Program-made: the position numbers and the translations under genes
The notes under the pieces: model-generated
The model's input: only the letters and a program-made list of their open reading frames with translations
What the model was told of the DNA's origin: nothing
Databases searched by the model: none
Source of the DNA: Candidatus Bathyarchaeota archaeon
GTDB taxonomy: Archaea > Thermoproteota > Bathyarchaeia > Bathyarchaeales > Bathycorpusculaceae
Direction of reading: 5' to 3'
Length of the DNA stretch: 64,000 nt
Assembly: GCA_963826715.1 (NCBI GenBank)
Contig: CAWGYA010000002.1
Location: 64,001 to 128,000, forward strand
Shown: piece after piece, positions 5,797 to 57,938 of the stretch
How positions within the stretch are numbered: the stretch's first letter is position 1
Layout: every line of letters starts with the position of its first letter

Positions 5797-7044
5797 TTAT
5801 TGTCCATAAGTACCTCGCCTAATCTTTTCTGCGAGTAAATGAATGAATTCAATCGGCCACACATCATCACAAACATCATCAGTTAATATTTTGCGTTGAT
5901 GGTACATTGGAATCAAGTCATTCTTTAAAACCAAAATCAACAGGAACTGATGTCCATATGTACGTTTAAAAAGTGCATACTTTCGGGCTTGTCGCTTAGT
6001 CATTTCAAAGTGAGGTTCAAGAATGATTTTTCGCCCATGTACTTTTTTCTCTAGAATAAAATCGGGAGTGTAGACTTCGTTTGGCAATGGAAAACTGATA
6101 GTTTCATATCCATAAGGAATATGCATATTGAGGAGGGTCAGCGCAGTTTTTTTTTCCCAACCGCTTTTGTATCGACTCATCTTCTGATAATATGCTTGAG
6201 ATTGTCCCGTAACTTTCTGCATCCGCTCCAAAAAATCCAGCGCCATCTTTAGGGTATACCGATTGAGCGTCTTTCGCTTGAGCCATCGACCCAATAAAAA
6301 GAAAGGATAATCAACCTTTGCAGGATCCATTGGAAACAATCGTTTAGCATAATCGGTTAATTTTCGACGAGCGTCACCCTCAGTTTTTTCGTCTCGCCAA
6401 AGGGAGGGCGAAGCAAAAGGTATAATTCCTAAGCTAGCAGCCACGTTGGCATTTTCTTTAGTCAGGGGAACGTAGAGACCTTCGGGAAGCAGATGGTCGT
6501 AGATTTGAAGGTCAGGTGCAGGGCGTACCATCCAACGCATGTATATCCATGCGCGGTCGCGGTGTGGACCAGCGAACGCAGGAATATTTTGAGCTATGTC
6601 TTTGATAAAATCGACGGGTTTAGTAAATTTTTGGGCGTACTTTAGCAGGTTACGCTCTGCGTTAGTTCTTATGAAAAGGTTAACTGAGGCTAAAATCTCC
6701 GAGGCCGCTTTCTTATTAGGACCCAAGTCCGAATAAAAGTCAGCTTTGATGATCTCCTCTTCAAAAAGGTGCCCCTTCTTTATTTCAAAGAGGGTGCTGC
6801 CAAAGGCAGTGTGCAGGTAACTTAGTAGCATACGAGCGTTTTCGGGGTAACCGACTATAGTGTCGTCAAGGATAGATGCAGCTAGCAAAAAGTAGTGGGC
6901 AGAGATTCGGCGTTCCTCATATTTTTCTGAGTAGGGGTTAAAAAGTAGCCGTGGGCTCATACGTCGATCCCATTGGATATCAGCAACGTTAGAGTTTTTG
7001 TTAATAAAATCGATGAGCAGCGCGGTTATTTCGTCGGTTCCCAT
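5797..7044 (-). CDS. DUF2400/HhH-GPD-like domain fused to a T7 endonuclease I-like PD-(D/E)xK domain
   Basis: RAWIYMRWMVR...YVPLT...DPAKVDYPFF (DUF2400-like); C-terminal YKSGWE..YGYE..YTPDFIL..ILEPH (endonuclease I-like). Confidence 0.6.
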   Translation of the reverse strand: MGTDEITALLIDFINKNSNVADIQWDRRMSPRLLFNPYSEKYEERRISAHYFLLAASILDDTIVGYPENARMLLSYLHTAFGSTLFEIKKGHLFEEEIIKADFYSDLGPNKKAASEILASVNLFIRTNAERNLLKYAQKFTKPVDFIKDIAQNIPAFAGPHRDRAWIYMRWMVRPAPDLQIYDHLLPEGLYVPLTKENANVAASLGIIPFASPSLWRDEKTEGDARRKLTDYAKRLFPMDPAKVDYPFFLLGRWLKRKTLNRYTLKMALDFLERMQKVTGQSQAYYQKMSRYKSGWEKKTALTLLNMHIPYGYETISFPLPNEVYTPDFILEKKVHGRKIILEPHFEMTKRQARKYALFKRTYGHQFLLILVLKNDLIPMYHQRKILTDDVCDDVWPIEFIHLLAEKIRRGTYGQ

Positions 7045-22434: not shown

Positions 22435-22519
22435 CTACTGCACTAATTGCTTTGCTTAGATATTACTCTCCCCACGGAACAGGCTGTTCTCAGAGAAGAA
22501 CACTTATTGTGTTTAATTT

Positions 22520-22585
22520 GGGGTCTGTCATTTTGTCGAATTCTTCATCTTTCCCGATCAGACTGGGACGGCGACATCATCCCCC
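22520..22585 (-). ncRNA. box C/D sRNA, predicted guide for 23S Gm2251 (E. coli numbering); att target of the integrated element
   Basis: GGGGG-AUGAUGU(C)-CGCCGUCCCAGU(12-nt guide)-CUGA(D')-UCGGGAAAG-AUGAAGA(C')-AUUCGACAAAAUGA-CAGA(D)-CCCC; terminal G/C stem. Confidence 0.65.
22563..22585 (+). repeat. attL core (23-bp direct repeat)
   Basis: CTGGGACGGCGACATCATCCCCC identical to 27661-27683. Confidence 0.9.
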
Positions 22586-22643
22586 AACGATTGAAACACC
22601 GTCCCAGTGCTTTAGGGTTTTGGTAAGGGAAAGATGAAAATGA

Positions 22644-27603: not shown

Positions 27604-27660
27604 AAACACACAATAAGACAAACCAGTAATTTAGTCTCAGAAAATTACTTTGCCCTAAGG

Positions 27661-27683
27661 CTGGGACGGCGACATCATCCCCC
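27661..27683 (+). repeat. right att core (23-bp direct repeat)
   Basis: Identical to 22563-22585; similarity extends imperfectly to CACCGTCCC. Confidence 0.9.
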
Positions 27684-28016
27684 GATGAATAACGCACCGT
27701 CCCCGACTAAAAAGCCTTGGGTTCAAGTCGTTAAGATCAATTATGCGATATTCATTTGACTCAATCTTTAGACAGATTTTGCTGAAAAATAGATGGTTTT
27801 GTAGATTCGACTGAAAAGAATGTGTCCCGCTCTGGGGCAATATCTCTGTTTAGTTGTTTTCACATGATCCAACCAATTTAAAAAATTCTAATTTTGGCAC
27901 TACTAAATCGTTCAAAGCAATAGCATTTTGCAAATAGTTTTGACATTTCGAAGGAAAAATTTGAAGTAATCAAGTTTAAGATTCACTTGCTTGCATGCTC
28001 GTTTCTCGAACCATTC

Positions 28017-55436: not shown

Positions 55437-56009
55437 CTAATAGTTTTCGGCATAAACTTCAAAGTATGCTTTAGGGTGATTGCAGGTTGGACATTTATCT
55501 GGGGCCATAGAGCTATCGATGACTAAGCCACAGTTTCTACATTTCCATTTAATTGGAGCATCCTTCTTGAAAACTCGGCCTGATTCTATGCTTTCAAGTA
55601 GTTTGTTGTAACGCCGTTCGTGAGAAACTTCAACTTTAGCCACCATCCGAAAAGTTGAGGCAACATCTTTGAAACCTTCTTGTTCGGCAATATTGCCGAA
55701 GTTTGGATAAAGCGTACCCCATTCAAGTTTTTCGCCTGCGGCAGCTGCTTTCAAGTTATCCGCCGTGGTCGCAATAATACCTGCTGGGTAAGCTGCAGTG
55801 AACTCTACCATTCCGCCTTTGAGGTGCTTAAAGAAAAGTTCCGCATGTTCCTTCTCGTTTCCCGCAGTTTCCTCGAAAATTGCAGCTATCTGTTCATAAC
55901 CCTCTTTTTTGGCTACGCTGGCAAAGAAGGTATACCGGTTACGTGCCTGGGATTCGCCTGCAAAAGCTGCCAAGAGGTTCTTTTCTGTTTGACTTCCAAC
56001 AAAATCCAT
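55437..56009 (-). CDS. rbr: rubrerythrin
   Basis: TEKNLLAAFAGESQARNRY, E..H diiron motifs, C-terminal CRNCG...CPTC rubredoxin domain; start 56009 after AAGGAG. Confidence 0.93.
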   Translation of the reverse strand: MDFVGSQTEKNLLAAFAGESQARNRYTFFASVAKKEGYEQIAAIFEETAGNEKEHAELFFKHLKGGMVEFTAAYPAGIIATTADNLKAAAAGEKLEWGTLYPNFGNIAEQEGFKDVASTFRMVAKVEVSHERRYNKLLESIESGRVFKKDAPIKWKCRNCGLVIDSSMAPDKCPTCNHPKAYFEVYAENY

Positions 56010-56120
56010 TAGTTTATGCTCCTTATTATGAAGTTGTTTAAACAAAAATAAAAAAGTATCCAAAAATTTATCCGTATTTTATGGTTAATGCTTTTATTTC
56101 TGCTAGACTCTTATTGTGAC

Positions 56121-56185
56121 GCCGGATGATGAGAAGGCATTAGCTTGACGTAAAACGGATGAAAATTCAGAGTTACTCAGACGGC
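56121..56185 (+). ncRNA. box C/D dual-guide sRNA (predicted 23S A1913 and A1938 2'-O-methylation)
   Basis: GCCG-g-AUGAUGA(C)-GAAGGCAUUAGC(12)-UUGA(D')-cguaaaacgg-AUGAAAA(C')-UUCAGAGUUACU(12)-CAGA(D)-CGGC terminal stem. Confidence 0.8.
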
Positions 56186-56297
56186 ATACAATTTTAGTTT
56201 TCAAAAGAATACTTTGATAAAAGTCCAGCGGCTAATCGATAGCAATTTTTAAAAGCACTACGAACAATTCATTTACCCTACTACAGGAAGCGAAAGG

Positions 56298-57938
56298 TTG
56301 GAAACAGTTACAGGGAAAAAAATCGTCCTTACAGCATCAGCTACGGAAATGAGTGATTTCCTCAACAATCCCTTCATTGCCTTTGTCGGAGGCTTCGGCA
56401 AAGGGCCCATCCCTCTCTCATACGTGCGAAAAACACTCTATCCTCATCACCCGAAAAAGTCCGATGGCCAAGCAAGTTATGCCCCATATGGACTTCGAAA
56501 AGTTGAATCCATTCTCCTCGAAGGAGGATTTTCACCAAACGACATCGTCGTTGCAAACCCAGAAGACTTAGATATATTCATTGGACCCCAAACTAGAGTC
56601 GTTGGCATCTCCTCGATGGATCCAACAGGTATGGGTTATGTTAGCAAAACCTACAGCTCAATTGTAGGCGGCGGTGAACCTATGAACCGCATAGAATTCC
56701 GCAAACTTGTAATGCATCCGGCTATCAAAAAATACAAAAATAATCTCAAAATCATTGTGGGCGGATACGGTTCATGGCAACTCGAACGCCAACATGTCTC
56801 TGAAAGCTATGGTATAGATTGTGTATTGATGGGAGGAAGACCGGGACCAATCGTTGAGCTCTTCAAGAAAGCCGTTAGCGGCGAACCGATCCCACGGATA
56901 GCAAAAGCTGATGAATCTTTAGATAATTGGAATTACAACTTAGAAATGCCCCTTACTACAAATGTGGCTATCCACGGGGCAGTAGAGATTTCAAAAGGGT
57001 GTGGTCGCAACTGCCAGTTCTGTACTCCAACGATGCAACACAAAATTGATGTGCCGATAGAAAAAATCATGGCGGAAGTGGCTCTAAGCACCGCTCAAGG
57101 AAGCGACCATATCACATTAATTACCGAAGACTTGTTTCTATACGGCGCCAAAGACAAACGTTTTATCCCTAACCGCGAAGCCGTCGTAAACTTATGCAAT
57201 AAAGTCGCTAAACATCCTGGCGTGAAAAGTATTCAAGCTGCGCATATGTCACTTGCTCCAGTTTCCCACGACCCCCAAATGATTAAAGAACTCGCAGAGG
57301 TTCTCATCGAAAAAAGCTGGTATTCCTTCGGCAAAAAACCCATCATCACCGCAGAAACCGGAATAGAAACAGGCAGCCCACGCCTAATGAAAAAATACAT
57401 GGCAGGCAAAATGTTGCCGTTCCAGCCCGAGCAATGGCAAGACGTGGTCACCAACGCATTCGGTATCCTAAACGACAACGACTGGTACCCACTAGCGACT
57501 CTCATTATTGGATTGCCAGACGAAAAAGAGGAAGACATGCTGCAGACTTTAGAATTAATGGATAAACTCAAGGGATACAATGCGTTCTATGTACCGCTCT
57601 TCTTTGTACCCTTGGAAAACTGTGTGTTGATGAACAAAAAAGGCGCAGAAATTGATTCACTTTCAAAAGCCCGCTGGGACTTCTTCATTAAATGCTGGGA
57701 ATACAACATCAAAATCTGGAAACCAACCTTCCTTGAAAATCGGCTGCCAAACCCAATGATATACAAAACATTCGACAAAATCCTCATTCCATCCTTTGGA
57801 AAAATTTTAGGCTCATATTACGGCTTCACCCGAGGCAGCACCGGAGAACAATTCAAACAAGCTGTTTTCCAACTAAGCATGCCATTACCCGAGAACGGAA
57901 GAAAAGTTAAAGGAAAAATAAAGGCAGCTTACTCTTAA
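56298..57938 (+). CDS. B12-binding-like radical SAM protein
   Basis: APYGLRKVE, KIIVGG.G.WQ, GCGRNCQFC (CxxxCxxC), GIETGS. Confidence 0.88.
   Translation: METVTGKKIVLTASATEMSDFLNNPFIAFVGGFGKGPIPLSYVRKTLYPHHPKKSDGQASYAPYGLRKVESILLEGGFSPNDIVVANPEDLDIFIGPQTRVVGISSMDPTGMGYVSKTYSSIVGGGEPMNRIEFRKLVMHPAIKKYKNNLKIIVGGYGSWQLERQHVSESYGIDCVLMGGRPGPIVELFKKAVSGEPIPRIAKADESLDNWNYNLEMPLTTNVAIHGAVEISKGCGRNCQFCTPTMQHKIDVPIEKIMAEVALSTAQGSDHITLITEDLFLYGAKDKRFIPNREAVVNLCNKVAKHPGVKSIQAAHMSLAPVSHDPQMIKELAEVLIEKSWYSFGKKPIITAETGIETGSPRLMKKYMAGKMLPFQPEQWQDVVTNAFGILNDNDWYPLATLIIGLPDEKEEDMLQTLELMDKLKGYNAFYVPLFFVPLENCVLMNKKGAEIDSLSKARWDFFIKCWEYNIKIWKPTFLENRLPNPMIYKTFDKILIPSFGKILGSYYGFTRGSTGEQFKQAVFQLSMPLPENGRKVKGKIKAAYS

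Follow-up and report, generated by a model that had tools for sequence, protein, structure and literature searches.

A dual-guide box C/D sRNA of Bathyarchaeia with a CAGA D box and predicted targets at A1913 and A1938 of 23S rRNA

A 234-nt intergenic gap in a bathyarchaeal genome holds a 65-nt element that an earlier note, made by a model from the letters alone, had described as a dual-guide box C/D RNA ending in CAGA instead of the consensus CUGA, and the locus raises the question of whether this element is a genuine guide RNA, which nucleotides of the rRNA it would serve and whether its unusual D box is a property of the lineage. The window, that is, the whole 64,000-nt stretch of DNA analysed, corresponds to C2:64001-128000 in a genome of 2.64 Mb with 41% G+C. 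The gap separates a rubrerythrin-like ORF (55437-56063, minus strand) from a radical-SAM-like ORF (56298-57938, plus strand) that starts 113 nt downstream of the RNA, in agreement with the placement between rbr and a radical SAM gene given earlier. The relatives of the neighbouring radical SAM protein belong nearly all to Bathyarchaeia or Bathyarchaeota and include 'Bathy6' isolates and 'Candidatus Bathycorpusculum'. None of the window ORFs of at least 40 aa overlaps the element.

The element (56121-56185, plus strand, as are all its parts) has the arrangement GCCG-G-AUGAUGA-GAAGGCAUUAGC-UUGA-CGUAAAACGG-AUGAAAA-UUCAGAGUUACU-CAGA-CGGC. The GCCG/CGGC terminal stem noticed earlier comprises 4 bp (56121-56124 with 56182-56185) and is set off by a 3-nt k-turn bulge (G56125, A56126 and U56127) in the region of the C box, AUGAUGA (56126-56132), which lies near the 5' end, fits RUGAUGA and had rightly been called perfect. 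It is followed by the D' guide GAAGGCAUUAGC (56133-56144), in which U56140 lies five nucleotides upstream of the D' box, and by the D' box itself, UUGA (56145-56148), whose GA is invariant in orthologues. The variable loop of the k-loop, CGUAAAACGG (56149-56158), differs in length and sequence among orthologues and leads into the C' box AUGAAAA (56159-56165), whose register is taken from pair counts and whose positions 5-7 are non-consensus. The D guide UUCAGAGUUACU (56166-56177), with U56173 as the fifth nucleotide upstream of D, precedes the D box CAGA (56178-56181), in which A56179 faces U56130 of the C box, making the 3b:3n pair U-A. By sequence geometry, the 4-bp stem, the 3-nt bulge and the GA dinucleotides of the C and D boxes stand in a k-turn arrangement.

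Pattern searches were performed on the genome and on its reversed sequence. A strict dual-guide C/D pattern had a single match in the genome, the focal sRNA, versus none in the reversed genome, and a looser pattern of k-turn geometry, which left positions 5 and 7 of the C box and position 2 of the D box free and so allowed CAGA, gave six matches at five loci versus none. The focal sRNA combines a C box, the GA of a D box, a stem with bulge, internal D' and C' boxes, 12-nt spacers and paired N+5 positions with RNP genes in the same genome; its D box agrees with the consensus at C1, G3 and A4 and has A in place of U at position 2, so that a strict CUGA is absent here. The RNP genes encode fibrillarin (312.6 bits) and Nop5 (Nop, 242.2 bits), which are adjacent, and L7Ae (100.3 bits), all above the Pfam cut-offs. 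The folding energy is unremarkable (z = -1.75), as expected for the box C/D class. Judged by its sequence and that of its relatives, 56121-56185 is a real dual-guide box C/D sRNA.

Conservation was examined by BLAST with the element and its flanks against 61 relatives, 45 of which gave full-length matches at E <= 3.3e-8. The conserved block spans positions 12-77 of the query, i.e. 56121-56186 of the window, and its edges coincide with those of the RNA; the element is 76-100% identical among relatives while the flanks diverge and are unalignable even within the genus. A covariance model (R1) built from 57 distinct sequences (alignment A2) detected the RNA in every one of the 33 genomes sampled from the same order and, outside that order, in 48 of 117 Bathyarchaeia genomes, nearly always as one copy each, and also in 12 of the 13 genomes of one genus (g94) in another class of the phylum. 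The version of that genus (L325-L329, L341-L344) has an AGCC/GGCU stem, the C box AUGAGGA, the D' box AGGA and the D box CUGA, and carries the same A1938 and A1913 guides together in one RNA; the combination is therefore either older than the class or arose twice.

Some further features of the relatives were observed near the locus. In two of them (G031 and G028), at L009:2718-2822 (plus strand) and in L036, there are fragments some 1 kb away from the sRNA in which the 3' half of the focal RNA, with D guide, D box and stem, recurs as two tandem copies and no C box is present; G028 has two full copies of the sRNA besides its fragment. Many relatives carry one of two or three recurring sequences of about 35-40 nt directly after the sRNA (e.g. 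in flanks L020, L026, L028, L031 and L040, and in L005, L015, L018, L037 and L038), one of which is a hairpin (ACCUUAUA...UAUAAGGU type); the present genome has none of them.

Paired positions were analysed in the alignments. The terminal stem is paired in 100% of the cells in 78 distinct sequences, with three of its four pairs changed on both sides (GCCG/CGGC, GGCC/GGCC, GCCC/GGGC), in an alignment that was fitted to the model structure and is biased toward it; a MAFFT alignment of the own order alone gave two stem pairs with changes on both sides. Across 57 orthologues the C box always has U, G and A at positions 2-4 and G at position 6, position 5 being variable (U 44, A 7, C 5, G 1). C-box position 5 and D-box position 2 form standard pairs in 43 of the 57 sequences versus about 38 expected from the column frequencies by a hand calculation, for which reason variability is claimed here and covariation is not taken as proven. 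Position 2 of the D' box (U 47, A 9, C 1) and the base that directly follows GAUGA of C' show covariation: A accompanies UUGA, U accompanies UAGA and G accompanies UCGA. With the C' box read as AUGAAAA, positions 1 and 2 of D' pair with positions 6 and 5 of C' in 93% of the cells, and one of these pairs is UA in 40 sequences, AU in 6, UG in 2 and CG in 1, both partners having changed in seven cells. A reading of C' three bases further upstream (cgGAUGA), which leaves 15 nt for the D spacer, was discarded, as its k-loop stem is paired in only 57.9% of the cells. The AUGAAAA register gives a D spacer of 12 nt and agrees with C' in orthologues from other orders, where it reads AUGAUGA; supported in this manner by pairing, it bears out the two guides of 12 nt each that had been read from the sequence earlier.

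The guides were then compared with the rRNA of the same genome, in which the 23S gene (C8:1119367-1122400) and the 16S gene (C8:1187509-1188999) are single copies, unlinked and about 65 kb apart. The earlier note, working from a remembered 23S sequence, had assigned the D guide to helix 69 with A1913 at the fifth position and the D' guide to A1938, and with the native 23S rRNA both guides proved complementary at these sites. Positions 1-11 of the D guide form 11 contiguous Watson-Crick pairs with LSU 2030-2040 (AGUAACUCUGA, helix 69), placing LSU A2034, the equivalent of E. coli A1913 in the helix 69 loop, at N+5 in an A-U pair. Positions 4-11 of the D' guide form 8 bp with LSU 2058-2065 (AAUGCCUU), with LSU A2059, i.e. 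E. coli A1938, at N+5, again in a Watson-Crick A-U pair. The E. coli numbers follow from a gapless alignment to the annotated E. coli 23S rRNA with an offset of 121, and the two predicted target nucleotides lie 25 nt apart.

Shuffled guides served as a control for these duplexes. An 11-bp run anywhere on 16S and 23S rRNA was reached by 214 of 200,000 shuffles of the D guide. For the D' guide, 34,389 of 200,000 shuffles reached 8 bp anywhere on both rRNAs, and 1,587 of 200,000 did so no farther than 60 nt from the D target. The pattern of conservation follows the predicted pairing. In the D guide, all 57 sequences share the segment UCAGAGUUA, on whose 5' side the bases vary; likewise, the pairing bases of the D' guide (AAGGCAUU, positions 4-11) are nearly invariant and positions 1-2 vary, so that in both guides the conserved bases are the pairing ones and the non-pairing spacer bases vary freely. 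Among five relatives whose LSU was checked at the target sites, the segment was present in one (G041, of family f6), where both target segments are identical to those of this genome; the D' guide of that family, AAAGGUAUUUGC, forms 10 bp (one G-U) from position 2 with the LSU of that same genome. An alternative D' target at LSU 931-942 (10 Watson-Crick pairs and one G-U) was rejected: it has the G-U at N+5 with an adjacent mismatch, and it needs positions 1-2 of the D' guide, which are variable among orthologues.

The two arms do not carry equal weight. In the own genus the D' duplex has 8 bp and the target nucleotide is in its second pair, which counts against the methylation reading for this arm; the length lies below the 9-bp guide criterion of Dennis et al. 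2015, which is itself relaxed for double guides (PMC4644070). It may be, therefore, that the C/D RNP methylates A1913 only and that the D' guide has the part of an anchoring or chaperone arm, or is losing strength in the genus. Besides the short duplex at positions 4-11 and the A.A mismatch that position 3 shows, this would fit the replacement of the D' guide, with the D guide kept, in several lineages of other orders (7 of 20 sequences), and double guides with one arm that pairs but does not direct methylation are described by Dennis et al. 2015 (PMC4644070). Against it, the D' N+5 pair is a Watson-Crick A-U, the eight pairing bases are the very ones conserved, and both family f6 and the genus in another class keep a 10-bp D' version for the same nucleotide. 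We consider a guide for A1913 alone rather unlikely.

The reading preferred here is that the element is probably an independently transcribed archaeal box C/D sRNA, a predicted guide for 2'-O-methylation, which would direct Am1913 most likely and Am1938 less certainly in 23S rRNA. By the established mechanism of the family, L7Ae would bind k-turn (C/D) and k-loop (C'/D'), on which two Nop5-fibrillarin units would assemble, and each guide would set the rRNA nucleotide opposite the fifth base upstream of D or D' in the active site of fibrillarin. The D guide would thereby yield Am at A1913, in the helix 69 loop at intersubunit bridge B2a, and the D' guide Am at A1938, 25 nt downstream. Pairing with two adjacent segments of nascent domain IV may also assist its folding.

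Independent transcription bears on a different explanation, in which the element would be a cis-acting k-turn that binds L7Ae within the radical SAM gene's 5' leader, acting as a translational regulator and not as a guide RNA. It does lie on the same strand, 113 nt before the ORF start at 56298, and L7Ae-binding k-turns are known from archaeal mRNA leaders (PMC6298567, PMC5539422). A TATA-box-like element, CTTTTATTT (56091-56099, plus strand), is however found upstream, its TTTTAT beginning at -29 relative to the RNA's first base. Of 64 distinct upstream flanks from orthologues, 56 have TTTTAT starting at -31 to -27, versus 3 of 64 in the -60 to -35 part, and the remainder of the upstream flank is not conserved; the box would thus be an archaeal TATA box suited to transcription from the RNA's first base. 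Downstream, T4 runs occur within 25 nt in only 17 of 63 flanks and are inconsistent. A radical-SAM-like gene lies within 1.5 kb of the sRNA at only 13 of 65 loci and a rubrerythrin-like gene at 27 of 65, all 27 in the own genus; the want of a fixed neighbour gene argues against a leader element, as do the two rRNA-complementary spacers of exactly 12 nt conserved across the class, and such a role is very unlikely. That the element is a chance look-alike or a decaying remnant without function, as its non-consensus D box, the lack of an Rfam match at the gathering score and the partial 3'-half copies near the locus in two relatives might suggest, is barely credible in view of its class-wide conservation with covariation as a single copy per genome, its high identity between diverging flanks and the absence of matches in the reversed genome under both patterns.

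The D box was compared across lineages to establish how far CAGA extends. Among 57 distinct orthologues it is CAGA in 28, CGGA in 17, CUGA in 8, UUGA in 3 and CCGA in 1. A tally by lineage, covering 85 elements, gave CAGA 23, CGGA 16, CUGA 3 and UUGA 2 in the own family (CAGA or CGGA in 39 of 44), with CAGA in 22 of 34 elements of the own genus; CUGA 9, CGGA 5, CAGA 5 and CCGA 2 in the other families of the order; and CUGA in 16 of 20 elements from other orders, 14 of them with U.U at 3b:3n. The predominance of CUGA in other orders indicates that the focal variant descends from the canonical box. CUGA appears to be ancestral and A or G at position 2 derived in this order, as read from this distribution among lineages. 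As far as sequences can tell, CAGA is a real, recurrent and lineage-restricted D-box variant and not a genome-wide replacement of CUGA. The lineage-specific CAGA proposed earlier holds to the extent that the variant is derived and restricted to the lineage, and fails as a universal rule, since A, G and U all occur at this position in orthologues and a third sRNA of the genome has CUGA.

The CAGA box converts the usual U.U at k-turn position 3b:3n to U-A. In archaeal and human box C/D k-turns this position is normally U:U (PMC5689011). A Watson-Crick 3b:3n pair blocks folding in Mg2+ alone, whereas even G-C folds once L7Ae is added (PMC4382518), from which CAGA is predicted to be compatible with function: the U-A k-turn would not be expected to fold in Mg2+ alone and would be expected to fold on binding of L7Ae. 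More variable boxes and less canonical k-turns are reported for Pyrobaculum sRNAs in PMC6009581, whose main text contains neither CAGA nor CGGA and whose supplements may list such boxes; the files of the PMC4644070 supplement, in which target rows were matched by position, may list them as well.

A second box C/D sRNA of the window lies at 22518-22587 (minus strand), with the arrangement UUGGGG-G-AUGAUGU-CGCCGUCCCAGU-CUGA-...-AUGAAGA-(14 variable nt)-CAGA-CCCCAA: a 6-bp stem UUGGGG/CCCCAA, the C box AUGAUGU, D' box CUGA, C' box AUGAAGA and D box CAGA. Both sRNAs of the window, the focal one at 56178-56181, thus end in CAGA, as had been reported. Early scans missed the second RNA because they required GA at positions 6-7 of the C box, and it was located through conserved blocks and a weak Rfam match. 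Its D' guide forms 10 bp (one G-U) with LSU 2368-2377, with LSU 2371, i.e. E. coli G2251 of the P loop, at N+5; its D spacer varies within the genus and looks like an orphan guide. The sRNA was found in 33 of 36 genomes of the genus, and the D box is CAGA in 30 of 30 loci of the genus and in five of five loci of two other families (35/35).

Two features accompany this second RNA. Its 5' leader ACUGGGACGGUG (22588-22610, minus strand) is complementary to its own D' guide over 12 bp including one G-U, a better match than that of the rRNA target, and is partly conserved in relatives. A partial copy at 27650-27704 (minus strand), 5 kb away, consists of the leader, the C box and the same D' guide, with no recognisable D box or stem. 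Leader and partial copy possibly represent a cis anti-guide hairpin or the remnant of a duplication.

A third box C/D sRNA, of about 80 nt, is situated outside the window at C2:298827-298910 (L253:528-611, plus strand) and has a UGCC/GGCA stem, the C box AUGACGA, an internal hairpin and CUGA as both D' and D box. Its guides are complementary to LSU 866-873 (8 bp) and 876-882 (7 bp), at about helix 35. The D box is CUGA in 15 and CGGA in 2 of 17 aligned sequences, and BLAST detected the RNA in 16 of 36 genomes of the genus and in none of 24 genomes of other families.

A wider census was attempted by several methods. Pattern scans gave C/D-like candidates at C8:668320-668394 (minus strand; 7-bp stem, AUGAUGC and two CUGA boxes), C4:12635-12701 (minus strand) and C8:1092120-1092194 (plus strand). 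A candidate at 5825-5873 of the window (minus strand, GUGAUGA...CAGA) was rejected, as it lies inside a 415-aa ORF and is without internal boxes. Scans for half-mers (a GA.GA box, a spacer and NNGA, with a 9-10-nt rRNA complement) were equally productive with reversed and with real rRNA (290 versus 297 and 64 versus 68 matches, and with stems 281 versus 263 and 25 versus 25); such scans are useless for a census. BLAST of non-coding segments, and also of 400-nt tiles, against one whole relative (G003) returned mostly coding conservation and only three convincing sRNAs. The well-formed box C/D sRNAs of this genome number about 3-5.

The focal RNA is thus of an ordinary kind, a box C/D sRNA, and its family is new and outside Rfam. 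Searches of one literature library found no paper that combines Bathyarchaeota with box sRNA, and none among the snoRNA, methylation-guide, fibrillarin or sRNA papers listed that names Bathyarchaeia. From this family, Am1913 and Am1938 are predicted for the ribosome of an archaeal class that is widespread and for the most part uncultured. Where annotation depends on CUGA, guides of this lineage will be overlooked, and the natural series of U, G, A and C at D position 2, with matching C-box changes, offers material for the study of the C/D k-turn 3b:3n position. CAGA is fixed in the P-loop guide, and the focal k-loop likewise has Watson-Crick pairs at 3b:3n and 4b:4n; on this reading, the L7Ae/Nop5 of the lineage would tolerate or prefer a fully paired stem II. 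The predicted targets of the small sRNA set (about 3-5; mesophiles) are A1913 of helix 69, A1938, the P-loop nucleotide G2251 and the region of helix 35. Of these four, at least three are presumably methylated in yeast as well, an equivalence that we take from a numbering offset and assume in part. A small set concentrated on functional centres may, if this is true, represent ancestral guided methylations kept without an expansion of the thermophile type, and it bears on the question of which rRNA methylations are ancestral to archaea and eukaryotes. Taken jointly, the proposal that the D box moved from CUGA to CAGA or CGGA in at least two guides, that L7Ae/Nop5 tolerates or prefers a fully paired stem II and that the sRNA set is a minimal ancestral core is a tentative one, possible but more doubtful than not. 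On the points that a sequence can test, the earlier note was essentially right.

Among known families, neither sRNA of the window has a match in Rfam at the gathering thresholds, which is in line with the expectation that standard scans would miss them. The best match of the focal sRNA is SNORD45 (RF00279; 24.9 bits versus a gathering score of 42, E 0.0065), whose boxes and stem align with it over the full length; the likeness is one of generic boxes and a chance similarity in one spacer, and the focal sRNA is not a member. It lies below the gathering score for the C/D families SNORD45, snoZ175, SNORD57 and sR41, and neither snR63 nor snR13 is among its six Rfam matches up to E = 10. The best sub-threshold match of the second sRNA is snR67 (20.4 bits versus 55). 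A structural parallel is the k-turn of human U4 snRNA, which has G-C at 3b:3n, is bound by 15.5K of the L7Ae family and shares with the focal sRNA a Watson-Crick pair after the tandem G.A and, as would be expected here, protein-dependent folding (PMC4382518); U4 is a different RNA with a different function.

Yeast offers a comparison at the level of the sites. Its methylation table lists Am2256 (snR63), Am2280/Am2281 (snR13) and Gm2619 (snR67), and the Am2256 and Am2281 named earlier are both there (PMC5699541). The yeast snR63 and snR13 are two separate, longer snoRNAs with degenerate C'/D' boxes, unlike the focal sRNA. We take yeast 2256 and 2281 to be E. coli 1913 and 1938, from the equal offset of 343 and on the assumption that psi2258 and psi2260 correspond to E. 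coli 1915 and 1917; by offset and on a like assumption, Gm2619 would be E. coli G2251, and the human counterparts of snR63 and snR13 are presumably SNORD46 and SNORD15. With the numbering in part so assumed, the focal sRNA resembles snR63 and snR13 as a box C/D guide for apparently homologous nucleotides of helix 69 and the 1938 region. Guides to invariant rRNA segments must look alike, and common descent with snR63 and snR13 cannot therefore be claimed.

The closest comparison is with other archaea, in which helices 68-71, helices 35/35a and the peptidyl-transferase region are hot spots of guided methylation (PMC7994747, PMC4644070). The first supplement file of PMC4644070 ('target pred') gives 23S A2179, in alignment numbering, as the predicted target of Ignicoccus hospitalis sR91, and the supplement gives A2204 as that of Sulfolobus acidocaldarius sR125 and I. 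hospitalis sR109, the species being assigned here from its column order. The text of the same paper equates A2178 with E. coli A1912, and over a gapless stretch A2179 becomes A1913 and A2204 becomes A1938. Compared by predicted targets, these three are, like the focal RNA, double-guide box C/D sRNAs that use the same RNP for nearby sites of domain IV; they pair each site with G2211 or G2172, whereas the focal RNA unites A1913 and A1938 in one molecule and is also set apart by its CAGA D box. Their hosts are hyperthermophiles with dozens to more than 100 sRNAs, against about 3-5 in this genome. Of the 'eukaryote-like' methylations proposed earlier, it stands that the yeast sites appear homologous, and the epithet itself is overstated, since the same sites are predicted guide targets in Crenarchaeota (PMC4644070): A1913 and A1938 would be sites common to archaea and eukaryotes.
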